A DNA stretch of 64,000 nt from Nitrospirota bacterium (GTDB lineage: Bacteria > Nitrospirota > Thermodesulfovibrionia > Thermodesulfovibrionales > UBA1546): the NCBI GenBank assembly GCA_016195565.1, contig JACPZK010000006.1, positions 30,900 through 94,899 on the forward strand. Reading direction: 5' to 3'. The notes beneath the pieces are model-generated. The model was not told the DNA's origin. It was given only the letters and a program-made list of their open reading frames with translations, and did not search any database. Positions within the stretch are counted from its first letter, which is position 1; each line of letters opens with the position of its first letter. Positions 8,162-39,831 of this stretch are shown here, in pieces. The position numbers were made by a program, and so were the translations under genes.

Positions 8162-8929
8162 TCACATACATCTTTCCGCAGCTTTTCCGTCTTTCCGGCA
8201 GACGAGCAGTACCTCACTCACCAACTCGGTGTCGATCATCCGGGGGAAGAGTGCAAGCTTCTTCTGAAAGCGCAATCCCAGCGACATAAATACATGGCTA
8301 TACCACCACATCGCCTTCTTGCGCCGATGTGTGAGGAACCACATCCCGATATCGAGCAGGCGCGACGATTTCGGCTTCATCCCATAAATAGCGCTCTGCT
8401 CCACAGTGTAGCCGTGCTCCTTGAGCTTGGCGAGCAGGCGCTCTGGTTCGTAACGGCGCCGGTGCCCTACGAAGTCATCGAATGCCGTCCACTGCGATGT
8501 GTGAAGCGGTACTGAGAGGAGAAATGCTGCGCCGGGAGCAGCCACACGTGACAACTCGGATAACGCACCATCATCATCGTCAACATGCTCTACAATGTCG
8601 AGGGCGCAGACGAGATCAAACATGCCATCAGAAAACGGAAGCGAGGACACGAGGCCAGAAACTGCGTTTGCTCCACGTGCGCGCAGTTTGGCAATTGCCG
8701 GCTCGCTGCTATCCACGAAGTATGTATCTTTGAGAGGGAGCCTGGGCCTCAGGCCGGGTGCTACTTCAAGCTGCTTATCCGACGGAGAGACAAGTGAGCA
8801 TACGAGCGGCCAGGTGTTGAAGCGCTCGGGTTCGATCAAATGCGCGTCTGTCCACAGCGGATCGTAAAACCGGCGGTTTGCTTCGAGAAGCTCAGGGTCA
8901 GTACGATTGTGCAAATGGGCTGGATCCAT
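8162..8929 (-). CDS. class I SAM-dependent methyltransferase (compositionally atypical, G+C-rich)
   Basis: LEVAPGLRP (motif I-like) and FDLVCALDIVEHVDDDDGALSEL...GAAFLLSVP (Methyltransf_11/23-like). Last gene of the minus-strand run. Confidence 0.75.
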   Translation of the reverse strand: MDPAHLHNRTDPELLEANRRFYDPLWTDAHLIEPERFNTWPLVCSLVSPSDKQLEVAPGLRPRLPLKDTYFVDSSEPAIAKLRARGANAVSGLVSSLPFSDGMFDLVCALDIVEHVDDDDGALSELSRVAAPGAAFLLSVPLHTSQWTAFDDFVGHRRRYEPERLLAKLKEHGYTVEQSAIYGMKPKSSRLLDIGMWFLTHRRKKAMWWYSHVFMSLGLRFQKKLALFPRMIDTELVSEVLLVCRKDGKAAERCM

Positions 8930-8973
8930 CTATCCCTCCTTTTTTAGTTTCTGTTTAAGTTTCATTTCAGCTC

Positions 8974-10389
8974 TTATTCGAACTGGTTTCTTATCCTCAA
9001 AAACGTTGGAAGGTTCTTTATAATCCTGAATGTGCTGTCTGGACATTTAAACATCAAAGGCCAGAATTTCTTCATCCAGTTCTTTCCTGTGTAAAATCTC
9101 TTAATGGCCTGCCTGTGAAGTTTCTCCATTTTCTCTTTGGATTCTATTCCCTTAGGAATAAAGACAAAATTCATACAGTTCATTAATTCCCATTTCTCAT
9201 CGAAAGTCCCCTCTTCATGGATCGTCTTATAGGCAGGAGAGCCGGGAAAGGGCGTGAACTTGGTAATGTTCATATCATCAAGCCTGAGTTCTTCGATAAA
9301 ATCAGTTGTTCTTTTTATGGTCTGCTCGGTCTCGCCCGGAAGCCCCATCATAAAGAGACCCTTGGCCCTCATGCCGTTTTTCTTTATCCGCCTGACCGTG
9401 TCCCTGATCTCATTCAGTGTCACCTTTGCTTTATGCCTTTCAAGCAATCCATGGTCTCCGGATTCCATCCCTATACTCACCATCCATCCGCCGGCGGCCT
9501 TAAGCGTCTGAAGGAGTGCGTCGTCTGCATGCCCTACCCTTACCGCACAATTGAATGTCATGTGCAAAGGCTTTTTTCGGAGCAGCCCGCAAAACTCCTC
9601 CACCCTTTTCCGGTTAAAGGTAAAGAGATCGTCATAGAAGAAAATGTGTCTTACCTTGAAGTCCTTCTTGAGAAGGGCCATGTGCTCATAGAGATATTCA
9701 GCAGAATTAAACCTGAAACTCCTGCGAAAGACAGACCGGTCGCAGTAGGAACACTGATAAAGACAGCCTCTACTGGAGATCATTGAGGCGCTTGGGGACC
9801 TGGGATAATTGAAAAGAGGAGGTTCAAAATATTTCGGAAACCCTTCAAGTTTGCTGTATGTTGGAAATGGAAGGTCATCAAGTTCACAAAGTTCAGTCCT
9901 GAACCCGCAGGATTGGATGCCCTGAGCACCGCGTGAGATCATACCCTGTATTGCAGCTGGATCTTTTCCATCCGCCAGTTCAGTCATGGCGAGCTCTCCT
10001 TCGCCTGTCACAAGAAAATCGATTAGAGGAAAACTTTCAAGTATCTTCTCTCTTAATGCTGAAACATGGACTCCGCCGAAAACGATCTTCACATCCGAAA
10101 GGACCTTCTTGATCTCTTTTACCAATTGGTATGCGCCCGGGAAGCTTGATGTTGTGGATGTAAAGCCGATAATATCGGGCTTCAGGGAAATGACTTTGTT
10201 TATAAGATCAGCAGTCCCCTTGTCAGCCCTTCCGCGGCAGTTGTAAATATCAGCATCAAATCCTTTTTTTATAAGATAGGATGCCACAAAGAGTATGCCC
10301 ATCGGAGCGAGACGCACAGCGGTTTCAGTGTCATCCCTGCGGCCTTCTACCCAGTTAGAACCGAAAGGATTAATGAGAAGTATTTTCAC
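8974..10389 (-). CDS. B12-binding domain radical SAM enzyme (class B)
   Basis: N-terminal MKILLINPF...PDIIGFTSTT B12-binding-type fold, then radical SAM cluster motif CLYQCSYC. Confidence 0.85.
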   Translation of the reverse strand: MKILLINPFGSNWVEGRRDDTETAVRLAPMGILFVASYLIKKGFDADIYNCRGRADKGTADLINKVISLKPDIIGFTSTTSSFPGAYQLVKEIKKVLSDVKIVFGGVHVSALREKILESFPLIDFLVTGEGELAMTELADGKDPAAIQGMISRGAQGIQSCGFRTELCELDDLPFPTYSKLEGFPKYFEPPLFNYPRSPSASMISSRGCLYQCSYCDRSVFRRSFRFNSAEYLYEHMALLKKDFKVRHIFFYDDLFTFNRKRVEEFCGLLRKKPLHMTFNCAVRVGHADDALLQTLKAAGGWMVSIGMESGDHGLLERHKAKVTLNEIRDTVRRIKKNGMRAKGLFMMGLPGETEQTIKRTTDFIEELRLDDMNITKFTPFPGSPAYKTIHEEGTFDEKWELMNCMNFVFIPKGIESKEKMEKLHRQAIKRFYTGKNWMKKFWPLMFKCPDSTFRIIKNLPTFLRIRNQFE

Positions 10390-11812
10390 GCTTTACCTTT
10401 CCGCTTGCTGTTTTTGGCAATGCATCCACAATTTGAAAATCCTTGGGCACTTTATATTGAGACATTCTATGATAGCAGAACCTGCGCAAAGCATTCAGGT
10501 CAATGCTGCTGCGACTATTCTTCAAAACAAGCTTCGCTACAGGCAGTTGTCCGTACTGTGGGTGGGATACACCGTAAACCATTGACTCTTTTATGAGCGG
10601 GTATTCGTTAAGTACGGATTCCACCTCAAATGCAAAGACCTTCATGCCAGCGAAATTAATGACATCCTTTTCCCTCCCGACAATGGTCAGATTGCCATTA
10701 TCATCAATCCTGCCGAGGTCTCCTGTTTTAAACCAGCCTTCTTTCAAGATACTCTTCCCGTTCTTCCATGGTGAAAAATAGGCATTAAGCATTCCCTTTC
10801 CTTTTATGTATATTTCACCAACTCCGTCAGAGCCCTTTTTAAATATCTTTATCTCATAATCTGGAAGCGGCCTGCCTACAGACCCCCTGTTTTTTTTGTC
10901 TGCATTAAGATTCATGAACGGCAATCCCACCTCAATGATGCCGTATGCCTCACTCAGTTCAAACCCGAATTTTTCAGAAAACTGCTCTGCTATTGCGTCA
11001 GGGAGTTTCATGGCAGTCGAAACTGCCAGACGTACATTACTGAGCGACTCAGTGGAAAGGAGGTCAGAACGTGCCAGGAGATTATAGTGAAAAGGCGAGG
11101 CGTAGATAAATGTACCTTTATGTTCTGTGATGCCTTCTATCAATGCCTCAGGAAAACGCTGACTGCATAATACAATAGTTGCGCCTCTTCGCAGAAAAAG
11201 GAGTATTGTCACCACAAAATGGAAACTCATCGAAAGCACCCAAAGCACTGTATCTCCAGAAGTTATTTTAAGCCCCTTATCTGCAGCGTCTGTCCTTTCG
11301 ATTATCGCCTCATGCGAAAGCACCACTCCTTTGCTTGCACCTGTAGTGCCGGAGCTGAAACGGATGAATGCGGGATTTAATTTATAATATTCGCTGTTGT
11401 CCAGTTCAGGGATGTCTCTCTTAATTATCTTCAATTCTTTTTTTAGCAGTCCCCCTGACAAAAGATTCTCCGAACCTTCCTCCTCAAACGTCCCCTTTTC
11501 GAATATCAGATAATCAAGAGCGATCCTGTCAATGATATCTCTTATCTCATTATCAGACTGTTCAGGAGATATGGGGACGATCACCGCGGACAAAGAGAGG
11601 ACTGCCATGCTCGTTGTCAGATAGTCAATTGAGTCGCCGCACAAGAGACCCACCCGGTGGAATTGGCCCACACCTTTTTCCCTGAGAGAAGACGCTGTGA
11701 TATCAGCGCAGGAGAAAAGCTTCGAATATGAAATCACCTGATTGTCTTCAATCACCGCTGTTTTATCGGCAAAGTCCCGGGTCTCCTTTCTAATTGTATC
11801 GAAGATGTTCAT
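10370..11812 (-). CDS. acyl-AMP/acyl-CoA ligase (ANL adenylating superfamily)
   Basis: SSGTTGASKGV, GWFKTGDLG, VGREKD, PKTASGKVKR. Start placed at ATG 11812 (AAGGTGA Shine-Dalgarno), directly after the upstream stop. Confidence 0.85.
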   Translation of the reverse strand: MNIFDTIRKETRDFADKTAVIEDNQVISYSKLFSCADITASSLREKGVGQFHRVGLLCGDSIDYLTTSMAVLSLSAVIVPISPEQSDNEIRDIIDRIALDYLIFEKGTFEEEGSENLLSGGLLKKELKIIKRDIPELDNSEYYKLNPAFIRFSSGTTGASKGVVLSHEAIIERTDAADKGLKITSGDTVLWVLSMSFHFVVTILLFLRRGATIVLCSQRFPEALIEGITEHKGTFIYASPFHYNLLARSDLLSTESLSNVRLAVSTAMKLPDAIAEQFSEKFGFELSEAYGIIEVGLPFMNLNADKKNRGSVGRPLPDYEIKIFKKGSDGVGEIYIKGKGMLNAYFSPWKNGKSILKEGWFKTGDLGRIDDNGNLTIVGREKDVINFAGMKVFAFEVESVLNEYPLIKESMVYGVSHPQYGQLPVAKLVLKNSRSSIDLNALRRFCYHRMSQYKVPKDFQIVDALPKTASGKVKRENTSH

Positions 11813-11813
11813 A

Positions 11814-13313
11814 TCACCTTTTATCGTAGTAATCCCTGTGAATTGCACGAAGGGCAAAGATATATTTTGTGCCGTTTACTATCGCCCTTATCACTTCATG
11901 AAAAGGCGTCTTCACCTTATTCACTCTCAGAGGATTTGTGGACCATGCAAGCCTGTAGAGACGGGCAAAATGCGCGTAGAACCTCCTGATATCAAGTTTC
12001 GTAGGCAGCAGTGTATGCATGCAGTCATAGAAGAGATAAGGGTCGCAGATAAATTCCTCTTTATGCTTATGCCACAGCTCAGTACCGGGTGATGGCGAGA
12101 AAACAGTAAAAGATACCTCAGCAGGCCCGATGTCCATTATCGTTTTTTCCACGCTCCTGAAATCCTCTACAGAAAATGAAGGGTCTACCATAAGACTGGC
12201 ATGAAGTGTTAGCCCTATCTCCTGAAGCGTTGATACCGCTTTTTTGTTGGTTTCAACAGAGGTGAGTTTCTTGTAATTTTTCAGGCGGGTTTCATCCATA
12301 GCCTCGAGCCCGACATAGACCATTTCAAGTCCTGCCTTTTTCCAGAGCCTGAACATATCAGGATGCCTTACTATCGTGTCAGCCCTTGCCCAGCTCACAA
12401 ACTTCTTTTTAATCCCTCTCTCTATAAGCAGCTGTGCGACCTTTGTCATCCTCTTTTCATTCAGAAACGTCTCGTCATCAACAAAATATATATGCTCTTC
12501 CTGAATATTTGCTATCTCGTTCACAACATCTTCAGGATTTCTCTCAAGATACTTCCGCCCCATTATGTGATGTACCACGCAGAAGGCACAATTAAATTTA
12601 CAGCCGTACGAAGTCCTGACAGATGCCATACGCGGGAATATGGTATCCAGCTTTCCATCAGGCGCTGAAGTCCAGACAGCAAAATATCTCGACCGCTCTA
12701 CAAGATCCCTACGGGGAAGAGGAATCTCCTCAACCTGCGGATAAGTCGGCGGTTTGGCAGCTGCTTTTTCCTGAAAATCCTTATCCAGCCTTGAGAGCGA
12801 AACGTATCCAAAATAAGGTGTTTCACCGGCTTTTAATCTTCTAATAATCTCCCTGAAGGTTGTGCCTCCTTCACCCCTGACTATAATATCTATATCATCC
12901 ACTGCATAATCAGCAGGAGCTATTATTGCATGAATTCCACCTACAACAACTATTGTAGAAGGGTATTTCTTCTTCACAAGTTGTGCCAGTTCCTTCACCC
13001 TTGCAGACTGATTGCTGTATCCGGTAAAGCCTACGATATCCGGCTTGATCTCATCCAGTCTTTTGTGGAAAACTTCCATCGGCTTTTTTCCCAATGTCAT
13101 GTCATATATCGAAACAGAGTCTTCTGCCGGTATACCGCCTGCAACGATCTCAAGTTCAAGAGGCTCAAGGTGGAGAAATTCGTTCAGCCTTTTGGCAACA
13201 GTAAGATACGGATGAGGCTTCACAAGAAGAATGCGAAGAGGCCCCTTTGTCTTCAATCGTGGTATGTTCTTTTCATCTGACTGCTTCTGCTTCATATCCG
13301 GCAAAGCCTCCAT
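11814..13313 (-). CDS. B12-binding domain radical SAM enzyme (class B)
   Basis: LRILLVKPHP...PDIVGFTGYS B12-binding-type N-terminus; CKFNCAFC cluster motif. Confidence 0.85.
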   Translation of the reverse strand: MEALPDMKQKQSDEKNIPRLKTKGPLRILLVKPHPYLTVAKRLNEFLHLEPLELEIVAGGIPAEDSVSIYDMTLGKKPMEVFHKRLDEIKPDIVGFTGYSNQSARVKELAQLVKKKYPSTIVVVGGIHAIIAPADYAVDDIDIIVRGEGGTTFREIIRRLKAGETPYFGYVSLSRLDKDFQEKAAAKPPTYPQVEEIPLPRRDLVERSRYFAVWTSAPDGKLDTIFPRMASVRTSYGCKFNCAFCVVHHIMGRKYLERNPEDVVNEIANIQEEHIYFVDDETFLNEKRMTKVAQLLIERGIKKKFVSWARADTIVRHPDMFRLWKKAGLEMVYVGLEAMDETRLKNYKKLTSVETNKKAVSTLQEIGLTLHASLMVDPSFSVEDFRSVEKTIMDIGPAEVSFTVFSPSPGTELWHKHKEEFICDPYLFYDCMHTLLPTKLDIRRFYAHFARLYRLAWSTNPLRVNKVKTPFHEVIRAIVNGTKYIFALRAIHRDYYDKR

Positions 13314-13325: not shown

Positions 13326-14537
13326 TTATATTTTATTCTCTGATAAAAGGTAATTTCCATGCTTGATCTTATTGGCTGCTGCCATACCCGCCTGCTCTCC
13401 GAGAGATATACATGTGCCCATCACCCTTGTGGACCCGAGCGCCTCGCGAGAAACTGATATGCACCGGCCTGCGCATAACAGGTTTTTAAAACCCTTCACC
13501 TTCAAACAACCAATGGGTATTTCATAGTAATCGTCTTTTGGAACATATTTGTAGATCGTCCCTTTATTTCTGTCCCATATCTCAATAGGCCATGAGTTTT
13601 TCACAATGCCATCAGAGAATTTCCTCGCACTAAGGATGTCGTCTTCCGTGAGTGTATATTCACCCCTTATCCTCCTGCCTTCCCTCTGCATTACTGCCTG
13701 AGAGGTCCCGGCAATATAAGAGTCTTTAAACTGTTCAAGTCTGTCCGCCAGATATCTGTGCACGGACAATGCATCCGTTATTGCTCTTTGCCTGCCTTCA
13801 GGACCATCAGCAACAACCACGCTTATTTTCAGATATCCTTCATCCGGAGCATCTCCGGGAGAGAGAGTTGAAAATCTCAGATAAAAAGAAAGCACTTTTT
13901 TTTCAGATGCTTCAGCCAGATAAAAAGGCACCTTTATCTGCAGGGTTTCATCGTAGTCCTTGATTCCCTTAATGCGCAGCACATATCCTGCAAGCTGAAG
14001 TTCTTCAGGCAATGATATATCGAAGTCTGCTCCAGCCAGCGTAGAGACCTCTCCGTTGCCTGTGCAATCTATGACCACACCGGGAACAATGTCATATTTG
14101 CCTTCGGAATTTTCAACTGTGATGCCCGTTATTTCTTCATCTGTTATTTTTACTAATACAACAGTTGTATTTGAAAGGACCTGCAGTTTAGATTCTGCAT
14201 TTAACAGTGAATCAAAAACAGACCTGAGGTCTTCCCTTGAGTAAGGCAGGACATAGACCCTCCCTATTTTCTTCACTTTATTATCTGGATAGAGTTTATT
14301 CAATAAAGAGACTACCTCCTCTGCTATTCCTTTATTAATCGTTTCAACAGGCATAGTGTCTCCATTGAGATAAAGGCCGCAGATATGCCTAAGCAATCCA
14401 GAATAGCCGATACCCCCCAAAAAACCTGCTCCCTCGACAAGACATGTACGCGCTCCCTGCCGCGCAGCTGCCACAGCTGCAGCCACACCGGAAACTCCGC
14501 CGCCTGCAACAAGGACATCAGCATGTGTCTTGATCAA
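13326..14537 (-). CDS. FAD-dependent oxidoreductase
   Basis: N-terminal dinucleotide-binding fold DVLVAGGGVSGVAAAVAAARQG...LVE; start overlaps the upstream stop by 4 nt. Confidence 0.7.
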   Translation of the reverse strand: MIKTHADVLVAGGGVSGVAAAVAAARQGARTCLVEGAGFLGGIGYSGLLRHICGLYLNGDTMPVETINKGIAEEVVSLLNKLYPDNKVKKIGRVYVLPYSREDLRSVFDSLLNAESKLQVLSNTTVVLVKITDEEITGITVENSEGKYDIVPGVVIDCTGNGEVSTLAGADFDISLPEELQLAGYVLRIKGIKDYDETLQIKVPFYLAEASEKKVLSFYLRFSTLSPGDAPDEGYLKISVVVADGPEGRQRAITDALSVHRYLADRLEQFKDSYIAGTSQAVMQREGRRIRGEYTLTEDDILSARKFSDGIVKNSWPIEIWDRNKGTIYKYVPKDDYYEIPIGCLKVKGFKNLLCAGRCISVSREALGSTRVMGTCISLGEQAGMAAANKIKHGNYLLSENKI

Positions 14538-16116: not shown

Positions 16117-16165
16117 ATGATTGCTCTCTTTTCCGATTTAACGTCTATCCATAAACAAAGATTTT

Positions 16166-16237: not shown

Positions 16238-16255
16238 GAATTTTATACTGTCTTT

Positions 16256-21028: not shown

Positions 21029-21059
21029 GTCTGAACCTTAGGTCTTGAATGTTAATGTT

Positions 21060-28358: not shown

Positions 28359-28362
28359 CGTT

Positions 28363-31804: not shown

Positions 31805-32510
31805 GCTTTACCTCAAAAAATCTGCTTTCAACAGGCATGTCCAGCTGAGTATTGGAAAACTCGATAGTGGTCGTATCTCCGCTCATTTCATCAATCATTA
31901 TCTTTCTGAGATATTTTTCATCTTCCCTGAACGTTATCGTGATGCTTTTGATCATCTTCTTTGCGATGTTCTTATCATTTGGGACAAACTCGATGACCAG
32001 AGGATGCTGCTGGAGTATGCTTACGTTATTGTCATCCATAAGAGCCCCGTATTCCCCTGAGAACCATACTGATAATTGGGTTATGACGTTCTTAAATATC
32101 GGGTTCTTCGCAAGAGACAGCTCCTGTACCTTGTTCGTATCTTCATCCCATTGCCGGATATATTTATCTGTGATGACCACTGAATATTTCACGGGCTTGT
32201 CAACATGCCAGGCCAGCATATTAGGCTTCTGCATATAGATGCGTCCGCGCAGGATTATCTTCTTTTTGAACATCGCCAGATTTTTTTCCTGTACAAAATC
32301 CGTCTTGAGGCTCTTGAAGTTAGAGACTTTTTTCCCTATCATGCGAAGCAGTTCTTTAACCTCCGCTGATTTGGCAGAGAGTTCACCTTTGCCGCTGTTT
32401 CCTCCTGCAGTCTCGCAAGCGGCCTGGTCAAAACTGAAAACAGGCAGGAAGAAAGCAAGGGACATTATAAGAAGAAAATTTATTATTATTTTCATTTTTC
32501 TATTTTTCAT
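31797..32510 (-). CDS. LolA-like outer-membrane lipoprotein carrier protein
   Basis: Signal peptide, ~210-aa soluble domain with FVQEKNLAMFKKKIILRGRIYMQKPNMLAW, typical of the LolA/LolB fold family. Start could also be ATG 32495. Confidence 0.6.
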   Translation of the reverse strand: MKNRKMKIIINFLLIMSLAFFLPVFSFDQAACETAGGNSGKGELSAKSAEVKELLRMIGKKVSNFKSLKTDFVQEKNLAMFKKKIILRGRIYMQKPNMLAWHVDKPVKYSVVITDKYIRQWDEDTNKVQELSLAKNPIFKNVITQLSVWFSGEYGALMDDNNVSILQQHPLVIEFVPNDKNIAKKMIKSITITFREDEKYLRKIMIDEMSGDTTTIEFSNTQLDMPVESRFFEVKRV

Positions 32511-33972
32511 CCTGCCAGACCTTTATCTCGCCTCTGGCTATAATGTCCTCTCCCTTGAATATCTCTCCCTTTATTACCCCGAACCCGCCATACTTCGCCA
32601 GCTTACAAACTGATACCCGCAAGGTATCGCCGACGCGTGCGCTCCCGAGGATCTCCAGGTTCTTTACTCCAAGCAGAAAACCTTTTGACCCGCCGTTGCC
32701 ATTCTTTATTTTTCTGAACCCGTCCTGTGCTGCAATCGATTGGGCAATAAGCTCAGGATAGGAGGCTTCGTCAAGCCTGCCGTCTTCAGAGACGAATATA
32801 GTGTCCTTTGAAATCTCGACTTCAGTTATGGATTCACGTTCTTTTATTGCGACCAGTTTTTTAACGATGAGCATCGGAGGTTTGTGAGGGATTAATTCTG
32901 AAGCGTTTACGGGAAGCCTGACAATATCGTCCTGCCTGTCCGCGTTCTTCCAGCATAATGGGTCAGAAGCAAGATAGTCGCCTGTCAGTTGATAAGCTGC
33001 ACCCCTGCAGCCATAACACTTGTTCAGATTAAGGCATTCACTGCACGGCCCCTTGATCGTCTTTTTATAGTTCTTCAGGTCCTGCATTACCTCGCTCTCA
33101 CGGATAATATCAGCCAGTTTCTTCTCCCTGATATTCCCGACAGGTATTGTTACTCCCACGCAGGGCTGTACATATCCGTAAGAATCAATTGCACAGGAGA
33201 ACTGGTGGCGCAGGCATTCTCCTGCAACCAAAGGCGGCTGGGGGTCCCAGTTGTTTCCGTATTTATCGCGGTCTATCTCAGCTATCCTGCAGAAAAACTT
33301 ATGTATGCGTTCAGTGTCAACATCCAGCAGATCGTTTGCTTTGGCATTCCCCTGAGGAGTTATCATTTCAAAAAAGGGTATAATGTTCTGGTCCCTCAGC
33401 CACGTCCACATGCCTTCAAGTTCAGCAATATTCTGCCTGCAGATAATTGTACTTATCCCGAGAGGAGCGCCTGAAGGATAGCCAGTGCCTTTAAGGTTAT
33501 TGAAAGCTTCATATATCTGATTATATGCGCCCTTTCTGCCTGCAAGCATGTCCTGGATCTTCTCATCGGCCGAGTTCATCTTCAGTACCACTGCAACTCC
33601 GAGCTCATATAACATCCGGGCCTTTGAGGCGTCTATGCCTGTGCCGTTTGTAAAAAGTTCCACATACAATCCCTGTGATTTTATGAAACCGAGCATGTCA
33701 AAGATGTGCGGATAGACCATCGGTTCTCCGCCGAGGATTATTATCTTCTTCGCGCCCAGTTCTTTTACCTGAAGGACTAAATCCTTGATTTCCCCTGCAG
33801 TTAATTCTCCCTCAAATCTTGAATCATCCTTTGCATAGCAGTAAACACAGTTAAAATTGCACCTGCGGCTGAATTCTATCTCAGCTGATAAAAGCCTGTT
33901 GTTGCTGACAGCATCTTCTATTTCCTCCGGAGAAAATTCAGCTCCATACATGCTGTTGTTACAACTCTCCAT
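32500..33972 (-). CDS. radical SAM/SPASM enzyme fused to a C-terminal hotdog dehydratase domain
   Basis: CNFNCVYC at residues 38-45. Cys-rich SPASM-type region CLRHQFSC...PCVG...CSECLNLNKCYGCRGAAY...PLC. Residues ~355-490 begin LIPHKPPMLIV and end in a FabZ/ApeI-like hotdog. Confidence 0.75.
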   Translation of the reverse strand: MESCNNSMYGAEFSPEEIEDAVSNNRLLSAEIEFSRRCNFNCVYCYAKDDSRFEGELTAGEIKDLVLQVKELGAKKIIILGGEPMVYPHIFDMLGFIKSQGLYVELFTNGTGIDASKARMLYELGVAVVLKMNSADEKIQDMLAGRKGAYNQIYEAFNNLKGTGYPSGAPLGISTIICRQNIAELEGMWTWLRDQNIIPFFEMITPQGNAKANDLLDVDTERIHKFFCRIAEIDRDKYGNNWDPQPPLVAGECLRHQFSCAIDSYGYVQPCVGVTIPVGNIREKKLADIIRESEVMQDLKNYKKTIKGPCSECLNLNKCYGCRGAAYQLTGDYLASDPLCWKNADRQDDIVRLPVNASELIPHKPPMLIVKKLVAIKERESITEVEISKDTIFVSEDGRLDEASYPELIAQSIAAQDGFRKIKNGNGGSKGFLLGVKNLEILGSARVGDTLRVSVCKLAKYGGFGVIKGEIFKGEDIIARGEIKVWQDEK

Positions 33973-35269
33973 TTGTCTGTCTCCTGTCTATCAATCTTAT
34001 TAATTTCCGTGAATTCCCTGAATAAACCTGCTCCATTACCTGCTCTTCACTCATAATGACCACCTCAGGACTCACCCTCAGACTGGCCTGAAGCTGTGCA
34101 GAAATGCTCTCCGGCGAACATGAACCATTGTTCACTGATACATATATCTTTACGTGATCGGAAAGGTCATAATTGCTTGTGAGCGTGACATAGTATTTGC
34201 TTATGCCAGGTATCCCGTCCAGCACAGAGTATATGGCCTGAGGATAGAGGGTCGTACCCCTGAATTTTATCATCTGTTTTTTTCTTCCGAGTATAGGCCC
34301 GAGACGGGGGGAGAAACGCCCGCAGCCGCACGGCTCGTCTATTATAAAACTTACATCACCAGTCTTGAATCTAAGCAGAGGCATCCCATCTATGGAGAAC
34401 GGCGTTACAACGACCTCTCCTGTTTCCCCTGCCTGTAAAACCCTCCCTTTTTCATCCACAATCTCAACGATGGCGAGATCCGGATGGAGATGTCCTCCTG
34501 CCTGCATCCTACATTCGCAGAAAGTCGTAATGGTTTCAGATGAGGCATATGTCGAAAAAACCTTTGCTCCCCACATCTCCTCAATGTGAGATCCCATTCT
34601 AAGAAGTGACATATCTTTATCCCTTAAGGGTTCACCGATACAGACCAGTCTCTTTACGCCGATATCGCGTGGATCAATATTTTTTGATTCTATATATTTA
34701 CCAAGCTTAAGGATAAAAGAAGGCACACCGACAATGACAGTCGGCCTGGCCCTCTGAATTATCTCAAGGTGGCTTGCAGTAGTGTTCAGCCCATTTCTGA
34801 CAGCAGCAGCGCCGAGGCTTCTTATACCCAGAAAGTAGGCAAGGCCTGCGACAAAACATTTATCAATAGTACAGGTAAGAAGGACAATGTCATCAGCCGT
34901 AATTCCGCATCCGGCAAAAGATATCTCTTCATTGTATGCAAGCCTCTTTAAATCGTTTTCAGTGTACATAATCTGTGAGGGTTTACCGGTAGTTCCTGAA
35001 GAAAAGACTATATCAACTATTTTCGAAAGAGGCGCTGCAAGAAAATCATCGCAGTATTTCCCGAATTCTGATTTGTCGGTATACGGCAGTTCATGCAGAT
35101 TTTTAAGGCTTATATTCTGTATGTCCATCCCTTTCAGCGTCCTGCGGTAATAGGGCGAATTGTTAATCAGATAATCCAGATGCTCCCTGAGAAGTTTCTC
35201 CTGTACTTCACTTATCCTGTCTCTGCCGGAAAATTCAATATTTCTGTATGAAGCAGAAAATTCTTTCAT
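33959..35269 (-). CDS. phenylacetate-CoA ligase (PaaK)/F390 synthetase-like adenylating enzyme
   Basis: FSSGTTGKPSQIMYT, short (~435 aa) ANL architecture typical of PaaK-like enzymes. ATG 35269 forms an ATGA overlap with the upstream stop. Confidence 0.7.
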   Translation of the reverse strand: MKEFSASYRNIEFSGRDRISEVQEKLLREHLDYLINNSPYYRRTLKGMDIQNISLKNLHELPYTDKSEFGKYCDDFLAAPLSKIVDIVFSSGTTGKPSQIMYTENDLKRLAYNEEISFAGCGITADDIVLLTCTIDKCFVAGLAYFLGIRSLGAAAVRNGLNTTASHLEIIQRARPTVIVGVPSFILKLGKYIESKNIDPRDIGVKRLVCIGEPLRDKDMSLLRMGSHIEEMWGAKVFSTYASSETITTFCECRMQAGGHLHPDLAIVEIVDEKGRVLQAGETGEVVVTPFSIDGMPLLRFKTGDVSFIIDEPCGCGRFSPRLGPILGRKKQMIKFRGTTLYPQAIYSVLDGIPGISKYYVTLTSNYDLSDHVKIYVSVNNGSCSPESISAQLQASLRVSPEVVIMSEEQVMEQVYSGNSRKLIRLIDRRQTNGEL

Positions 35270-36015
35270 GCCTTGCACTCCATCAGGGAAAGTTCCTTGT
35301 CTATAGTTTCCCGCACTCTGTTCTTAAGAGAAAAGACGCTAAAATCCTTGTATTCCTCCCAAAGGACCGCAGGCAGTCTGCGCACTCTGATCGTACCGGG
35401 ATGTAAAAACAGAGAACCCCTCGGCGGAATATTTTCACTTCCTGAGATACAAAGAGGGACTATCATGGCCTTTGATCTGAGAGCCAGGCGGAATGCCGCG
35501 CCATGAAAAGGGCCTATCTCCCTGTTTCCAGAACGGGTTCCCTCAGGAAAAAAGATTATTGAAACGCCTTCATCAAGCAAGGCTGCTGCCTTTTCATTAA
35601 AATCTTCAGGCATCATATTCCTAATGTCCAGATATTCCGCCATTCTTGCAAAACGTCCCAGTACAGGAATACGGAACGGCCAGATGTTCACAACCTGCAC
35701 TGCTTCAAGAGGCAGAACGCACATCAGAAAAGCGTCAGTGGCTGCCCTGTGATTGCAGACAAAGATATAAGACCCGTCAGAAACTTCTCCTGAATGGTCC
35801 TCGTAATGAATCCTTATGAACGGAAATGTAACAGATGTCATCACCATGCCATACCAGCTTATGCAGCGCCTGAATCTTTTCATGACAGTCCTTTTTGATA
35901 CGAAAAAAGACAAAAAGAACACAAAGAGCGAGAGTAGCGGAATAACAATCGCAGAAGCAATTAAAAACATCACATAAAAATAAATGTTCATCAGAATGAG
36001 TAATATCCTACCCAT
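35266..36015 (-). CDS. PlsC-type 1-acylglycerol-3-phosphate O-acyltransferase family protein
   Basis: N-terminal TM helices, NHRAATD (HX4D) and FFPEGTRS motifs. Confidence 0.8.
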   Translation of the reverse strand: MGRILLILMNIYFYVMFLIASAIVIPLLSLFVFFLSFFVSKRTVMKRFRRCISWYGMVMTSVTFPFIRIHYEDHSGEVSDGSYIFVCNHRAATDAFLMCVLPLEAVQVVNIWPFRIPVLGRFARMAEYLDIRNMMPEDFNEKAAALLDEGVSIIFFPEGTRSGNREIGPFHGAAFRLALRSKAMIVPLCISGSENIPPRGSLFLHPGTIRVRRLPAVLWEEYKDFSVFSLKNRVRETIDKELSLMECKA

Positions 36016-36018
36016 TCT

Positions 36019-36285
36019 TCAGGAATCCTTCCTTCCTTCAGCATTTTTTATTGACAAAATAAACTGATACACGTCCTGCAGGGTGCGTATGTTTCTTATC
36101 TTCTCTTCATTTCTGATATTTATCCCGAAGCTCTTTTGGAGCGCAACAACTAAATCCACTATATCGAGGCTGTCTAACCCGAGGTCGCTGAAGATATGCG
36201 CCTCAGGCTTTAACCTGTCGCTTTCTATCTCGAAAAACTCTTCAAAGACCTTATTGGTCTTCTCGATAATCTCCTCCTCAGTCAT
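36019..36285 (-). CDS. acyl carrier protein (ACP-3)
   Basis: 88 aa with LGLDSLDIVD motif. Confidence 0.85.
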   Translation of the reverse strand: MTEEEIIEKTNKVFEEFFEIESDRLKPEAHIFSDLGLDSLDIVDLVVALQKSFGINIRNEEKIRNIRTLQDVYQFILSIKNAEGRKDS

Positions 36286-36308: not shown

Positions 36309-37535
36309 TTACAACTTCCTGCAGACAAGTGCTGCATTAATACCTCCAAATGCAAAACAGTTCTTTAATATCGTATCTATTTTTTTTGTGACAGGGCTTG
36401 TGACATGATTTATTCCCATGCACTCAGGGCTTACATTATCCAGATTAAGAGTCGGATATATAACACCTTTCTGCATCATCTGCAAAGAGGCGATGAGCTC
36501 GATCGCGCCGGAAGCCCCAAGTGTATGGCCTATATATCCCTTGAGGCTGCTTACCGGGACAGAAGAACCAAAGACCTCTTTGATAGCCTCAGCCTCTTCC
36601 TTGTCTCCCTGAATTGTTGCTGTAGCATGGGCATTTATATAATCAATATCATCCTTTGTGATTCCGGCATCGCTCAGCGCCTGCTGCATGCATAGAACCA
36701 TAGAGTCTTTATTGGACTGGCTGACGTGCGAGCCGTTTCCGTTCGTGCTGTAACCGATAATCTCAGCGTATATCTTTGTATTCCTCCAAACCGCGCTGTC
36801 ATAATCTTCGAGGACAAGAACACCGCTTCCTTCACCGCAGACAAGGCCATCCCTGTCCCTGTCAAAAGGCCTCGGTGTCTTTGACGGATTATTGTTAAAA
36901 CCTGCTGAAGTGGCCATGAGAACATCAAAAGACCCTGTGACGGTAGGATGGACCTCTTCAGCCCCGCCGCAGAGCATTATCTCCTGCCTTCCCAATCTCA
37001 CAAGGTCATATCCCACCCCAATTGCATGAAGTGAAGATGCGCAGGCAGCTGAGGTGGCCATTATAAAACCTTCCAGCTCGAGGTACTGGGCAACGTTCGC
37101 AGCCGCGGTATGCGACATGCACTGAAAGAACATCGAAGAGTTAAGCTGACTGATGTCCTTTTCCGGCAGCATTATCTCAAAGGCGTCGTTAATGCTCTTT
37201 GCACTTCCCATAGTTGAGCCGATGACGCACCCGATTTTCAATTGAGGGATATCAGAGAAGCTGAAGCCAGAATCAGCAAGCGCCTGTTCAGCGGCCTGTG
37301 CTGAAAAAATACTCATGCGTCCCATAAAACGCCTCTTGTTCCTTGGTATTTTACGTTCATTCTGTATCTCTGCCGGTGCAGCAACATGGCTCCTGAGGCC
37401 TGTATATTTGTCCCAGCCTTCCATTAAACGCACTGCGCTCCTTCCATGATCGATCCCATCCATCAGCGCTTTCACATCATTGCCAAAGGGAGAAACAGAA
37501 CCCATTCCTGTAATTACGACTCTCTTTAACTGCAT
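36309..37535 (-). CDS. beta-ketoacyl-ACP synthase (FabF/FabB-like)
   Basis: MQLKRVVITGMGSVSPFG, TSAACASSLHAIG (Cys), NAHATAT, IGHTLGASG. Confidence 0.9.
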   Translation of the reverse strand: MQLKRVVITGMGSVSPFGNDVKALMDGIDHGRSAVRLMEGWDKYTGLRSHVAAPAEIQNERKIPRNKRRFMGRMSIFSAQAAEQALADSGFSFSDIPQLKIGCVIGSTMGSAKSINDAFEIMLPEKDISQLNSSMFFQCMSHTAAANVAQYLELEGFIMATSAACASSLHAIGVGYDLVRLGRQEIMLCGGAEEVHPTVTGSFDVLMATSAGFNNNPSKTPRPFDRDRDGLVCGEGSGVLVLEDYDSAVWRNTKIYAEIIGYSTNGNGSHVSQSNKDSMVLCMQQALSDAGITKDDIDYINAHATATIQGDKEEAEAIKEVFGSSVPVSSLKGYIGHTLGASGAIELIASLQMMQKGVIYPTLNLDNVSPECMGINHVTSPVTKKIDTILKNCFAFGGINAALVCRKL

Positions 37536-39028
37536 AAATTCCTGCTCATAAATCTGCTGTATTTTTCATCTTTAATAATTGATTTTCCAACAACAAAGGA
37601 TGACATCATCGCTCCTATTATTCCCGGGAGGAGTGAGCTTTGCCCGGCCGCATACATATTGCGCACAGGCAGTTTCCCTATCAGATTATACTGCCCGGCC
37701 TTCTGTTTGATTCCATATGCAGACCCGTCATGACTGTTCAGATAGTCCCTGAAGGAGAGCACTGATGCCGAATCGATCACTGTTAAGTGTTCTTTATAAT
37801 CAGGATAAACCCTGAAAATTCGTTCTTTGATGCTCTCAACTCTTTCCTGCTTATAATCCTGATATGCCTGCGGCCTCTTTCCTCTTGCCGTGCTCTCCCA
37901 TTGTTTAACATGTTCTATGAAAGAGGTGCCGAGGACGTTCATAATCCTTTGGCTTTTCCCGTTCACTTCTTCTGTGGACCTGATGATCACCAAGGCCTCT
38001 GCGCCTTTGTATTCAGGGTCCAGAAGCCGGTTGATATCTGTGTGAGGGAAAAGAGAGACGATTGAACTGCCGGAATCATGTTCGTTATAGCCTGAGTCCA
38101 GAGCAGCAAATAAGGCAAAAAAACCGGCAGATGCCTCGAAGGAGGAGACACGGCTGATAAATGCTTTACTTAATAATCCATCAGGAATGAGTTTAAGAAT
38201 CTCTTTCGGATGTATTGTAAGGATGCAGTTCTCAGACTCTATCTCCTCGCCGGTGTTCAGAACGAATCTGCCTGCACGCTTGTTGCGTATATCGGTTATC
38301 TCAGTAATATAGCTGCTGCAGGCGACCTCTATATCAAAGTCCTTAAATTTGTTTTTGAAGGCCTCAATTAACGAAGCGCCACCGCCTTTAATGCGTGAAA
38401 CAGATTCATACAGGCCAAAACATATCCTGCTATGGCTGGCAAAAGAGATCTCCCTTGGCCGGACTCCGTAACACATCGCAAAGCCGGATAACAGGGCCTT
38501 CAGCACTGCATTTCCTGTCAGGCTATTTAGTACTTCTTGGAGAGAAACAAAATCCTCATCGAGCCAGCCCTGAGTCATCGTGAGTGTACGAAGGTTCATT
38601 GAAGGCGTGTGAGCGCATACATGCTGGACTTTATCAAAATATTTGTCTACAGCCGCTGCAGCGGACGGAAAATAATTCTTGAATCTGTCCCTCAACTTAC
38701 TAAAGCCGTACGGAACTTCATACGACCTGTTTTCGGATTCAAAATAAAAAGAGTTGGCGTTGTCTTTAGGAAGAAAAACCGGTTGAATCAAATCATAAAG
38801 GCCGAGAACAGACAGCATATCATGCAGCATCCCGCCCTTCTGCAGTCCTCCCGTAAAATGAAAGCCTGTATCAAAAGGTATCCCATTCCTGTAGAAAACA
38901 GAAATGGACCCTCCGATATGCGGGGCCTTTTCCAGAAGCAGCACCTTGCGGCCGTTCATCCCAAGGATAAGGGACATTGTCATACCGCTGATACCGCTGC
39001 CGACAACTATATCGTCATATTTTTTCAT
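37526..39028 (-). CDS. phytoene-desaturase (CrtI)-family NAD(P)/FAD-dependent oxidoreductase
   Basis: DDIVVGSGISGMTMSLILGMNGRKVLLLEK dinucleotide fold; 500 aa; C-terminal AGQSSLLPGIIGAMMSS, typical of the amine-oxidase/CrtI family. Confidence 0.7.
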   Translation of the reverse strand: MKKYDDIVVGSGISGMTMSLILGMNGRKVLLLEKAPHIGGSISVFYRNGIPFDTGFHFTGGLQKGGMLHDMLSVLGLYDLIQPVFLPKDNANSFYFESENRSYEVPYGFSKLRDRFKNYFPSAAAAVDKYFDKVQHVCAHTPSMNLRTLTMTQGWLDEDFVSLQEVLNSLTGNAVLKALLSGFAMCYGVRPREISFASHSRICFGLYESVSRIKGGGASLIEAFKNKFKDFDIEVACSSYITEITDIRNKRAGRFVLNTGEEIESENCILTIHPKEILKLIPDGLLSKAFISRVSSFEASAGFFALFAALDSGYNEHDSGSSIVSLFPHTDINRLLDPEYKGAEALVIIRSTEEVNGKSQRIMNVLGTSFIEHVKQWESTARGKRPQAYQDYKQERVESIKERIFRVYPDYKEHLTVIDSASVLSFRDYLNSHDGSAYGIKQKAGQYNLIGKLPVRNMYAAGQSSLLPGIIGAMMSSFVVGKSIIKDEKYSRFMSRNLCS

Positions 39029-39076
39029 ATAATTTTATATTTGCTCAGTGGAGCTGGAACTTTTAAAGACCAAATT

Positions 39077-39799
39077 CTAAATTGCCAGTCCCCCATTAAT
39101 ACCGATAACCTGTCCATGTATATACATGTCTTCTTCAGTACATAAAAAATTAACAACTGATGCTACATCTTCAGGCCTACCTAACCGGTTAACGGGTATC
39201 AGGTTCAGAACCTGCTCTTTGGGAAGCCCTTCTGTCATATCTGTTTCGATAAACCCGGGAGCAACCACATTTATGAGTATGTTTTTCTTGCCGACTTCAC
39301 GGGCTAAGGCTTTGGCAGCGCCGATCAATCCAGCCTTGGAAGCGGAGTAGTTGACCTGACCTGCCTGCCCTATCTGTCCTGACACAGAGGACACAACAAC
39401 GATGCGCCCTTTTTTGGCCTTTAACATGGAGAATAATATTGTGCGGGTCACATTGAAGAATCCGTCAAGATTTGTAGAAAGTACAGTGTCCCATTCGTTT
39501 TTTGTCATCCACATAAGGAGATTATCTTTGGAAATGCCTGAATTGTAGACCATGACATCGGGGGAAAAATCCTCTACCCTTTTTCCTAATGCAGTTTCTG
39601 TCTCTTCATAGCTGGAAACATCGAAGGGTATTAAATCACAGGCGCTTCCCAGTTTTTCTATTTCTGATTTAACCTTTTGGGCAGCCTCATGATTGCTTTT
39701 GTAAGTCAACCAAATATCAAAGCCGGATTGAGCCAGCCGTAAGGCTATGGCGCGTCCTATTCCACGGCTGCCACCAATTATTAACGCAATTTTTACCAT
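39077..39799 (-). CDS. fabG: 3-oxoacyl-ACP reductase (SDR)
   Basis: MVKIALIIGGSRGIGRA, NYSASKAG (YxxxK). Start placed at ATG 39799; the track's TTG 39838 abuts AAGGAGA with no spacer. Confidence 0.85.
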   Translation of the reverse strand: MVKIALIIGGSRGIGRAIALRLAQSGFDIWLTYKSNHEAAQKVKSEIEKLGSACDLIPFDVSSYEETETALGKRVEDFSPDVMVYNSGISKDNLLMWMTKNEWDTVLSTNLDGFFNVTRTILFSMLKAKKGRIVVVSSVSGQIGQAGQVNYSASKAGLIGAAKALAREVGKKNILINVVAPGFIETDMTEGLPKEQVLNLIPVNRLGRPEDVASVVNFLCTEEDMYIHGQVIGINGGLAI

Positions 39800-39831
39800 A
39801 AGATTAAAATACAGAATGTAATCTTTCTCAT
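39793..39831 (-). promoter_or_regulatory. candidate 12-codon leader ORF (MRKITFCILILW) translationally coupled to fabG
   Basis: AAGGAG lies 8 nt upstream of ATG 39831. Its TGG-TAA end overlaps the fabG ATG (ATGGTAA). fabG itself has no Shine-Dalgarno. Confidence 0.3.

Follow-up and report, generated by a model that had tools for sequence, protein, structure and literature searches.

A Nitrospirota gene cluster of the TIGR04072 "ladderane-type" family joins an aryl-polyene-type lipid scaffold to six predicted radical SAM enzymes

We analyzed a 64,000-nucleotide stretch of an uncultured Nitrospirota bacterium (GenBank assembly GCA_016195565.1, contig JACPZK010000006.1, positions 30,900 to 94,899; hereafter the window, with positions counted from its first letter), in which 30 consecutive minus-strand open reading frames (ORFs) run from 39838 to 8162. 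This block is an operon-like cluster that combines aryl-polyene (APE)-type lipid assembly and export with six radical S-adenosylmethionine (SAM) enzymes. Sequence comparison places it in the TIGR04072-containing "ladderane-type" family, as the Nitrospirota equivalent of the kuste3335-3352 cluster of Kuenenia and of loci known from Desulfotalea, Geobacter, and Pelobacter. We consider it likely that the block is a single biosynthesis-and-export cluster of this family, with the architecture of an aryl-polyene-lipid (APEL) cluster and two parallel chain modules, and that its radical steps are, most conservatively, C-methylations. The product is most likely an outer-membrane-targeted glyco- or phospholipid with polyketide-like chains tailored by cobalamin radical SAM enzymes and is probably not a ladderane.

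Domains were assigned with Pfam and NCBIfam profiles, motif checks, and one structure prediction (gene 6); gene 30 is the first of the cluster and gene 1 the last. The family assignment centers on gene 15, one of six predicted radical SAM proteins, all of which have an intact CxxxCxxC motif.

32500-33972, minus strand: gene 24, fusion of a radical SAM/SPASM protein with an ApeP-like hotdog dehydratase (Pfam Radical_SAM 86.5, SPASM 33.9, and ApeP-like 23.2 bits; CxxxCxxC at residue 38)
24816-26096, minus strand: gene 16, B12-binding radical SAM protein of an uncurated family (Pfam Radical_SAM 25.7 bits; CRFNCFPC invariant in 14 orthologues)
23446-24819, minus strand: gene 15, TIGR04072 "lipid biosynthesis B12-binding/radical SAM protein" (rSAM_ladder_B12; 618.9 bits, cutoff 360)
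19643-21028, minus strand: gene 11, HemN-like (class C) radical SAM protein, accessory cassette (ChuW/HutW 176.5 bits, cutoff 400)
11814-13313, minus strand: gene 4, B12 radical SAM protein, HpnR-like (C-methylase-like), semi-accessory (HpnR 239.3 bits, cutoff 650)
8974-10389, minus strand: gene 2, B12 radical SAM protein, HpnJ-like (HpnJ 181.2 bits, cutoff 577.6)

All six had been called in a preliminary description of the stretch, and the profiles and motif checks bear these calls out. Residues 2-442 of gene 15 align to positions 1-442 of the 443-position TIGR04072 profile, which makes it a full-length member. Among 1.84 billion representative sequences, relatives of TIGR04072 number 26,051 at E ≤ 1e-3 and 656 at E ≤ 1e-30. 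We compared the window with the Kuenenia proteins listed in Table S6 of Javidpour et al. 2016 (PMC4790861). The first 399 amino acids of kuste3342 score 401.8 bits against the TIGR04072 cutoff of 360 and are 36% identical to gene 15, whereas kuste3343 shares 48% identity with the radical SAM/SPASM N-terminal half of gene 24. For the B12 enzymes kuste3608 and kuste2803, which come from clusters confined to anammox bacteria, the best window match is gene 16 (29%, E = 6e-47, and 28%, respectively), and no curated NCBIfam family is as close to kuste3608 as gene 16 is. Thus, Kuenenia's candidate ladderane radical SAM proteins find their best matches in differing window genes (15, 24, and 16). Both kuste3336 and kuste3607 are 24% identical to the CrtI-like gene 29. 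These data agree with the earlier suggestion that the predicted anammox "ladderane" clusters are the nearest known system, kuste3342 and gene 15 both belonging to TIGR04072.

Loci of this kind have been noticed repeatedly. Rattray et al. 2009 (PMC2649909) described a "striking" synteny between Kuenenia and Desulfotalea and similar clusters in Geobacter and Pelobacter, the shared genes encoding radical SAM, phytoene-dehydrogenase-like, phenylacetyl-CoA-ligase, glycosyltransferase, and membrane proteins. Table 2 of that paper shows Phe in place of the catalytic Cys in G. sulfurreducens NP_951518 and Kuste2805, and the same substitution is present in window gene 8. All gene types of the synteny group occur in the window, namely radical SAM proteins, a phytoene-dehydrogenase-like protein, a phenylacetyl-CoA-ligase-like protein, a glycosyltransferase, a membrane protein, FabF paralogues (one inactive), and acyl carrier proteins (ACPs), and we found the same arrangement in Geobacteraceae, Pelobacteraceae, and Desulfobacterales genomes. 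A "ladderane" class built on the 2009 work has been part of antiSMASH since 2015 (PMC4489286), and Geller-McGrath et al. 2023 (PMC9902471) reported expression of "ladderane" biosynthetic gene clusters in Cariaco metagenome-assembled genomes (MAGs) of Desulfobacterota, Omnitrophota, Myxococcota, and other non-anammox phyla, leaving their function open. The preliminary description had held that APE-like loci with such a radical SAM set were unrecorded and that the type "looks undescribed"; TIGR04072 and these three reports contradict this. The locus belongs to a curated and widely distributed family, first flagged in 2009 as "ladderane-like," and is not of an unrecognized kind. Our literature searches found no paper assigning a product to any family member, and those on TIGR04072, "rSAM_ladder_B12," and the GSU0456-0462 locus tags returned nothing.

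The published list for kuste3335-3352 comprises a glycosyltransferase, PD (abbreviated thus there, as is PCL), two methylases, FabZ, two ACPs, FabG, two radical SAM proteins, PCL, three FabF proteins (one non-canonical), and a deacetylase. In common with the window are the TIGR04072 protein, the radical SAM/SPASM protein, a CrtI-like protein, a PaaK-type ligase, a family 2 glycosyltransferase (GT2), FabG, FabF paralogues including an inactive one, at least two ACPs, a NodB-type deacetylase, and a SAM methyltransferase. Judged by the papers' gene lists, the Kuenenia locus differs in gene order, and its radical SAM/SPASM protein is not fused to an ApeP dehydratase. The window additionally has a second module, in which a condensation-fold enzyme joins a ketosynthase (KS), a chain-length factor (CLF), and an ACP, as well as the HemN-like cassette and two further B12 radical SAM proteins.

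Homology and synteny show three further functional sets in the block. The first is a type II polyketide/fatty acid synthase (FAS) set of three KSs, two inactive KS partners, three ACPs, a ketoreductase, two hotdog dehydratases, a thioesterase, and a PaaK/FlxY-type starter ligase. The second supplies head-group and anchor enzymes (a PlsC-type lysophospholipid acyltransferase (LPLAT), an LpxL-type acyltransferase, and a GT2-DUF2062 protein), and the third is a trio of LolA-like protein, resistance-nodulation-division (RND) transporter, and LolB-like lipoprotein that would deliver the product to the outer membrane. Most of these lie in what we call module A, from FabG to ACP2, where genes 24, 16, and 15 are interspersed with the following.

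39077-39838, minus strand: gene 30, short-chain dehydrogenase/reductase-type ketoreductase (FabG/ApeQ/FlxB-like), first of the cluster (Pfam adh_short 177.7 bits; NCBIfam FlxB_rubin_SDR 304.5 bits, cutoff 340)
37526-39028, minus strand: gene 29, CrtI/RetSat-family flavoenzyme, a polyene desaturase, saturase, or isomerase, direction not assigned (Pfam Amino_oxidase, NAD_binding_8)
36309-37535, minus strand: gene 28, ketosynthase KS1, Cys-His-His (PRK09116 442 bits, cutoff 470; active-site alignment)
36019-36285, minus strand: gene 27, ACP1, DSL motif (NF003757 73.2 bits, above cutoff 65)
35266-36015, minus strand: gene 26, PlsC-type LPLAT, ApeD-like (Pfam Acyltransferase 65.3 bits)
33959-35278, minus strand: gene 25, PaaK/FlxY-type aryl- or acyl-adenylating ligase, ApeH-like starter activation (NCBIfam FlxY_rubin 470.6 bits, cutoff 520)
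31797-32510, minus strand: gene 23, LolA-like periplasmic carrier, ApeL-like, with signal peptide (Pfam LolA 69.2 bits; LolA2_flexi 112.7 bits, cutoff 125)
29420-31804, minus strand: gene 22, RND/MMPL-type exporter, ApeM-like and HpnN-like (HpnN 93 bits, HAE3 69.5 bits)
28743-29510, minus strand: gene 21, DUF3261 lipoprotein, ApeN/LolB-like, probable start 29423 (Pfam DUF3261 24.7 bits; lipobox LIIGC; weak match to LolB2_flexi, 23.7 bits, cutoff 60)
28363-28746, minus strand: gene 20, FabA/FabZ/ApeI-like dehydratase (Pfam FabA 26 bits, ApeI-like 21.6 bits; orthologues with precomputed ApeI-like matches)
27876-28382, minus strand: gene 19, 4HBT thioesterase, ApeK-like (Pfam 4HBT_2 54.4 bits)
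26758-27906, minus strand: gene 18, ketosynthase KS2, Cys-His-His (Pfam KS N- and C-terminal domains; top NCBIfam match AmcF 206.6 bits, cutoff 325; active-site alignment)
26090-26761, minus strand: gene 17, truncated KS-like protein, the N-terminal thiolase half without catalytic Cys (no Pfam or NCBIfam match; 14-orthologue profile)
22278-23462, minus strand: gene 14, GT2 with a DUF2062 membrane domain, ApeJ-like (Pfam Glycos_transf_2 70.1 bits, DUF2062 59.6 bits)
21386-22360, minus strand: gene 13, LpxL/HtrB-type acyltransferase (Pfam Lip_A_acyltrans 28.6 bits)
21060-21353, minus strand: gene 12, ACP2, DSL motif (NF006617 74.3 bits, above cutoff 70)

Module B and the accessory genes around it make up the 3' part of the block, together with genes 11, 4, and 2.

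18513-19436, minus strand: gene 10, NodB-type polysaccharide deacetylase, accessory (Pfam Polysacc_deac_1 60.9 bits)
17327-18496, minus strand: gene 9, ketosynthase KS3, Cys-His-His (PRK09185 303.1 bits, cutoff 407; active-site alignment)
16256-17323, minus strand: gene 8, CLF-like KS homologue, Phe replacing the catalytic Cys (Pfam ketoacyl-synt 68.4 bits; alignment)
15874-16116, minus strand: gene 7, ACP3, DSL motif (Pfam PP-binding 39.6 bits)
14534-15871, minus strand: gene 6, free-standing condensation-domain-fold acyltransferase of 445 amino acids, HxxxD at H146/D150 (AlphaFold2 model and Foldseek)
13326-14537, minus strand: gene 5, FAD_oxidored (PF12831) flavoenzyme (Pfam 270.5 bits; weak similarity to geranylgeranyl reductases)
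10370-11857, minus strand: gene 3, FadD-type acyl-AMP/CoA ligase (Pfam AMP-binding 196.3 bits; PRK06187 267 bits)
8162-8929, minus strand: gene 1, class I SAM methyltransferase, last of the cluster (Pfam Methyltransf_11 44.3 bits)

Essentially all domain calls of the preliminary description, including those of the KSs, the ACPs, and the LolA/MMPL/lipoprotein trio, were reproduced by these profiles, the motif checks, and the structure prediction. Three of three ACPs carry DSL, and active-site alignment showed Cys-His-His in three KSs and two KS-like proteins without the catalytic Cys. Two proteins had no Pfam match, the 445-amino acid gene 6 and the 223-amino acid gene 17, and both were later assigned. 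The AlphaFold2 model of gene 6 (predicted local distance difference test, pLDDT, 86.2; predicted template modeling score, pTM, 0.88) matched the SrfA-C condensation domain (E = 6e-21), AzeD (template modeling score 0.74), and SgcC5 in a Foldseek search of the PDB, and its HxxxD motif is invariant in 42 sequences, so that the condensation-fold call made earlier from the motif is upheld. A 14-orthologue profile of gene 17 matched residues 63-189 of FabF (PDB entry 1j3n, E = 4.5e-5), and the protein is a probable partner of KS2. A PDB sequence search with gene 1 yielded generic class I methyltransferases only and matched no anammox methyltransferase structure. For both KS2 and KS3, the top PDB match is chain B of a heteromeric KS (9s5h/9s5i), which outranks the canonical FabFs. 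As this entry may or may not be the anammox amxFabF2/amxFabFmut heterodimer, we draw no conclusion from it.

The layout of the block is compact. With junctions measured from longest-ORF starts, only two gaps exceed 100 nucleotides (nt), one of 139 nt (16117-16255) and one of 206 nt (19437-19642), and most other junctions overlap or span at most 50 nt. Four-base overlaps lie at 14534, 24816, 26758, and 28743; those at 29420 and 35266 are seen once the starts of identical public contigs are applied. The ORF coordinates thus bear out the strand, junctions, gaps, and overlaps that had been described, and the palindromic repeat reported in the first gap is real. The probable fabG start is the ATG at 39799, downstream of the best promoter match of the region.

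39965-39993, minus strand: best sigma-70-like promoter match, upstream of fabG (TTGACA-17-TACAAT, 11/12 positions; a consensus match only)
16163-16240, strand not assigned: compound palindromic double hairpin in the CLF-ACP3 gap, resembling repetitive extragenic palindromes or miniature inverted-repeat transposable elements (two ATTCCC…GGGAAT hairpins, including the region's best terminator-like hairpin)

The palindrome gave 2 matches compared with 0.08 expected, and its hairpin motif also occurs in 14 of 112 related loci. Rfam models matched tRNA-Met alone, and neither a cobalamin riboswitch nor another leader RNA was found. The G+C content of the window is 43-44%.

The architecture of the cluster is, as far as profiles can tell, of the APEL/flexirubin type. 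The models FlxY, FlxB, LolA2, LolB2, ApeI-like, and ApeP-like rank first or close to first for their window proteins, which supports the scaffold type proposed earlier. The APE core defined by Grammbitter et al. consists of KS (apeO/R), ACP (apeE/F), CLF (apeC), dehydratase (apeI/P), ketoreductase (apeQ), and transporter (apeM), and all six types are present here, as three KSs, three ACPs, two CLF-like proteins, ApeI-like and ApeP-like dehydratases, FabG, and an RND/MMPL transporter. In Xenorhabdus, the APEL is a GalNAc-phosphate-glycerol lipid with two cluster-made conjugated chains, an aryl polyene built on ApeE and a C26:5 acyl chain built on ApeF; it is assembled by ApeD (an LPLAT) and ApeJ (a glycosyltransferase/acyltransferase) and exported by ApeM (RND), ApeL (LolA-like), and ApeN (DUF3261) (10.1101/2020.12.19.423268). 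The APEL clusters known from Xenorhabdus doucetiae and E. coli CFT073, like the Bacteroidota flexirubin clusters, share their part list with the window, and also the local order ACP-LPLAT-ligase-dehydratase…LolA-like-RND-DUF3261-dehydratase-thioesterase-KS, plus an ApeJ-like GT2, a ketoreductase, and KS/CLF. To our knowledge, radical SAM, CrtI-like, and condensation-fold genes are all absent from canonical APE clusters, and the published gene lists agree with this. Conversely, the 30-gene block has no starter gene of the ammonia-lyase or chorismate-lyase (UbiC) type, in line with the absence of the usual aryl-starter route noted before, and no ApeG (COG4648), and the hosts are strict anaerobes. 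The hopanoid-associated proteins HpnR, HpnJ, and HpnN are the best curated matches of gene 4 (239 bits), gene 2 (181 bits), and the RND protein, but these scores are far under the cutoffs (650, 577, and 752, respectively), and the block contains no squalene-hopene cyclase or other hpn genes.

Conservation across phyla argues that the block is one unit. Homologues of the central B12 radical SAM protein were aligned, one genome per species was scanned, and the best 80 of 135 relative-encoding loci were kept; each ORF in a locus was assigned to its best-matching window protein, and presence was counted among the loci spanning that gene. The loci compared are MAG-derived, plus Desulfobacterium sp. 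N47, and represent Nitrospirota/Thermodesulfovibrionia, Geobacterales/Desulfuromonadales/Pelobacteraceae, Desulfobacterales (to which N47 belongs), Omnitrophota, one Deferribacteres MAG, and one Planctomycetales MAG. The order 27-26-25-24-…-12-(11)-(10)-09-08-07-06-05-(04)-(03) is colinear throughout the 80 loci. Each of genes 05-09, 12-18, and 20-24 occurs in ≥90% of the spanning loci (e.g. gene 22 in 48/48, gene 17 in 65/65, and gene 13 in 71/72), gene 19 in 53/57, and gene 25 in 26/31. The most conserved proteins are gene 16, with 74-78% identity across three phyla, and ACP2, with 74-76%. With the CrtI-like protein as anchor, the 5' end FabG-CrtI-KS1-ACP-LPLAT-ligase-SPASM/ApeP-LolA-RND… was found kept in Desulfobacterales, a "Pseudomonadota"-labeled MAG, and two Nitrospirota, and because each of these relatives has a different upstream neighborhood, the cluster appears to start at FabG. 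At the other end, a search of metagenomes with gene 2 showed that close relatives keep the order 05-04-03-02-01 and that a PagL-like gene in convergent orientation comes next.

These results are difficult to reconcile with a run of two or three unrelated operons that are adjacent and co-directional by chance, a reading that the synteny largely refutes and that we regard as extremely improbable. Promoter-like matches at both larger gaps (19462-19435 and 16329-16301) and the terminator-like hairpin at 16234-16215 do speak for it and against a single transcription unit, the 3' genes vary by lineage, and the second KS/CLF module is missing from a few loci (L050, L046, and L065), which suggests that modules A and B may be separable pathways. 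However, the order …14-13-12-[10]-09-08-07-06-05… is maintained across the module boundary in at least four phyla and in >90% of the loci reaching far enough, most junctions are tight, and an arrangement shared across phyla excludes chance adjacency. The single locus of the preliminary description therefore stands. Taken together, the block is a single conserved unit that is nevertheless modular: module A (FabG to ACP2) is invariant, module B (KS3 to the flavin adenine dinucleotide (FAD) enzyme) is present in most loci, and the tailoring genes differ between lineages.

The six radical SAM genes are not equally integral to this unit, and in this respect the preliminary description needs qualification. 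The HemN-like gene 11 occurs in 5 of 63 loci and the HpnR-like gene 4 in 19 of 31. Terminal gene 2 is found mainly in Nitrospirota, as is gene 1, the latter in close relatives only, and the deacetylase gene 10 is present in 38 of 63 loci and in none of those from Omnitrophota. Gene 11 is bracketed by a 21-nt direct repeat (19/21 identical; 19598-19618 and 21056-21076), the second copy being the 3' end of ACP2 (last codons and stop), and it is 85-92% identical in relatives whose neighboring genes show 50-70%. The repeat, the sparse occurrence, and the excess identity suggest that gene 11 is a recently spread cassette. In one variant cluster, from the "Pseudomonadota"-labeled MAG (L087:13784-14878), the FlxY-like ligase is missing and the ApeP-like protein lacks its radical SAM half, keeping a weak SPASM remnant. 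This suggests that the fusion and the starter ligase are dispensable in some lineages.

By analogy with the Xenorhabdus APEL, we propose that two chain-building modules work in parallel on a glyco- or phospholipid anchor, which would then be delivered to the outer membrane. Module A would use KS1, KS2 with its truncated partner, the two best-conserved B12 radical SAM proteins (15 and 16), and the radical SAM/SPASM-ApeP fusion, with radical chemistry taking place on ACP-bound β-hydroxy, enoyl, or polyenoyl intermediates; the fusion to a dehydratase and the tight adjacency of genes 15-16 to KS2 and its inactive partner point to such substrates. Module B (KS3/CLF, ACP3, the condensation-fold protein, the FAD enzyme, the FadD-type ligase, the HpnR- and HpnJ-like radical SAM proteins, and the methyltransferase) would build a second chain, which the gene 6 enzyme, encoded beside ACP3, would off-load as an ester or amide; the acceptor may be an amino sugar that the accessory NodB deacetylase has exposed. 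The two flavoenzymes could catalyze desaturation or saturation: homologues of gene 29 are named "phytoene dehydrogenase-like" or "all-trans-retinol 13,14-reductase" in the source records, gene 5 weakly resembles geranylgeranyl reductases, and the Kuenenia CrtI-like homologues showed no CrtI activity in E. coli. The radical steps would be anaerobic, cobalamin-dependent C-methylations of an aryl/polyene or alkyl chain. This is the most conservative guess because the curated families nearest to TIGR04072 are the B12 radical SAM families BzaD, which we take to be a C-methylase, and tryptophan 2-C-methyltransferase, and because the best match of gene 4 is HpnR, a hopanoid C-3 methylase; HpnJ, the top match of gene 2, is annotated as hopanoid-associated only. 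C-C ring closure is a less likely, unsupported alternative.

Several points weigh against this scheme. The chemical steps are all proposals, as the family has no member with an assigned product, and the methylase assignment draws on resemblance to distant families. The enzyme under the strongest constraint, gene 16, has no sequence relative in the PDB and resembles no characterized family. The flexirubin-family scores given above all fall short of their cutoffs (FlxY 470.6/520, FlxB 304.5/340, LolA2 112.7/125, and LolB2 23.7/60), and the ApeI-like, ApeP-like, and MMPL Pfam scores are under the gathering cutoffs, which indicates a distinct branch rather than a canonical APE or flexirubin cluster. 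Finally, the lack of an aryl-starter-forming enzyme in the block, together with the missing ligase in the variant cluster, means that the starter may not be aromatic.

The relationship to anammox chemistry bears on whether the cluster makes a true ladderane or another polycyclic (cyclobutane or cyclopropane) lipid, with radical SAM enzymes joining carbons of a polyene chain. Cluster I of anammox bacteria (kuste3603-3608: amxACP, amxFabZ, amxFabF2/amxFabFmut, a PDH-like protein, and a B12 radical SAM protein), which has been described from ladderane producers only, follows the same logic as the window: an active KS is paired with a catalytically dead one and has its own ACP, and a CrtI-like flavoenzyme and a B12 radical SAM protein accompany them. 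The window has homologues of all four radical SAM candidates of Kuenenia and of the phytoene-desaturase-like enzymes, and the triad of genes 16-18 (B12 radical SAM, inactive KS, and KS) mirrors both kuste2803-2805 and kuste3605/3606/3608. The HemN-like class C enzyme of this lineage would also suit such chemistry, as would the resemblance to the ring-forming cispentacin enzyme AmcF, which is the best NCBIfam match of KS2 (206.6 bits) and ranks fifth for KS3 (216.6 bits, behind PRK09185 at 303.1 bits and fabF); KS2 with its short KS-derived partner is reminiscent of the AmcF/AmcG pair. However, neither AmcF score reaches the cutoff of 325, AmcG is not matched by gene 17, and an AmcE-like cyclizing decarboxylase is represented by a marginal match to gene 20 only. 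The HemN-like gene is accessory. Unlike in Cluster I, the inactive partner of KS2 is half-length, and the identities to Cluster I (kuste3608 and gene 16, 29%; kuste3607 and gene 29, 24%), with kuste2803 at 28%, suggest paralogous families, not orthologues. In addition, Desulfotalea psychrophila carries a syntenic locus and no ladderanes were detected in it (PMC2649909), and ladderanes have been reported as unique to anammox bacteria. We therefore consider a ladderane product very unlikely.

A broader version of the idea is that the invariant core (genes 15/16, KS plus half-KS, and the radical SAM/SPASM-dehydratase fusion) forms C-C bonds, by ring closure or cross-linking, on an ACP-bound polyene, the anammox kuste3608/2803 machinery being a specialized offshoot. 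We regard this as improbable. If true, non-anammox anaerobes would make undescribed carbocyclic or cross-linked outer-membrane lipids, and ladderane chemistry would become testable in Geobacter.

The main rival to an APE-like lipid, itself an unlikely one in our view, is that the cluster alters acyl chains of the bulk membrane or of lipid A, as an anaerobe-specific FAS II variant whose methyl-branched or otherwise modified fatty acids end up in phospholipids or lipid A. A functional connection with lipid A remodeling is hinted at by the LpxL/HtrB-type acyltransferase, which is the gene 13 product kept in all but one of the loci spanning it, by a conserved neighbor of the cluster, and by an LpxR lipid A deacylase (1810-2826 in the related locus L113) ~6 kb upstream of FabG.

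7442-8122, plus strand: convergent gene for a PagL-like lipid A 3-O-deacylase/outer-membrane β-barrel protein, possibly cluster-associated (Pfam PagL 57.1 bits)

This PagL-like gene is kept beside the 3' end of the cluster in relatives, with 59-94% identity, even where the methyltransferase is missing. The NodB deacetylase and the FabG- and FabF-like enzymes would also be at home in such a pathway, in which the two flavoenzymes could act as enoyl or double-bond reductases, as the geranylgeranyl-reductase similarity and "retinol saturase" names allow. The cluster is conserved broadly and vertically in anaerobes, and "ladderane" clusters are expressed by Cariaco MAGs of several phyla. On the other hand, the LolA/RND/LolB-like trio, the PaaK/FlxY ligase, the KS/CLF pairs, and the ApeI/ApeP dehydratases are hallmarks of APE-type systems and not of housekeeping FAS II, FabI, FabD, and FabH are all missing from the block, and the block is island-like in this genome and located at other chromosomal sites in close relatives. 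We therefore favor the APEL-type biosynthesis-and-export cluster.

The product and chemistry of this family have been an open question since 2009, and a 2026 review and a 2026 preprint state that almost nothing is known about ladderane biosynthesis. To this, our analysis adds that the family has APE-lipid-type assembly and export with ~24 near-invariant colinear genes in at least four phyla, that its most constrained enzyme is the uncurated B12 radical SAM protein gene 16, the nearest relative found of the anammox Cluster I enzyme, and that the HemN-like and other tailoring genes are add-ons to a block that is island-like in this genome. Some Geobacter species are genetically tractable. Because cultivable Geobacter, Pelobacter, and Desulfotalea carry similar syntenic loci (Rattray et al. 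2009, PMC2649909), the radical chemistry should be approachable by knock-out lipidomics there rather than in anammox bacteria, for which there is no genetic system. Should the product prove to be a simple methylated polyene lipid, the gain would be the correction of a misleading "ladderane" label. The present locus, in an uncultured Nitrospirota MAG, adds little beyond the comparative picture.

The island-like character of the block is suggested by a perfect 48-bp repeat of tRNA-Met sequence around all of it.

6917-6964, plus strand: left copy of the perfect 48-bp direct repeat, the 3' part of tRNA-Met (6885-6961), found by sequence comparison
40322-40369, plus strand: right copy, a tRNA-Met 3' fragment, 48/48 identical to the left copy

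The left copy spans from the anticodon loop of tRNA-Met to three bases past CCA, and the two copies, 33,405 bp apart from start to start, precisely enclose the 30 genes together with their leader and the PagL-like gene. The borders are thus att-like, with a tRNA 3' end repeated on both sides, whereas no integrase or other mobility gene occurs among the ORFs between the repeats; the flank of a related locus (L107) lacks an integrase as well. In relatives with 84-92% DNA identity, homology runs from the cluster to the PagL-like gene and stops ~40 bp short of the left repeat, and the neighbors beyond are unrelated. The pattern fits a tRNA-integrated island whose integrase was lost or which was mobilized in trans, and such a nature may help to explain the spread of the cluster across phyla with its gene order kept. 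The cluster leader also contains a truncated MazE/AbrB-type antitoxin-like frame (39877-39930, minus strand; MLTVKVTSTGQVTMPKG, ending at a stop), and an intact MazE-PIN pair occupies the equivalent position upstream of FabG in L113 (6654-7415).

Housekeeping genes flank the block, with tRNA-Met, OsmC, PgpA, CinA, LigT, RecA, and RecX on one side and NamZ, a MurU/AmgK-like kinase-nucleotidyltransferase, TilS, GltX, and GlnS on the other. Elsewhere in the window, a TIR-domain protein (52794-53564, plus strand) and a PIN-domain protein (54500-54895, minus strand) lie in a low-GC patch (38% G+C, 52-54 kb), which may represent a small defense or toxin islet unrelated to the cluster.

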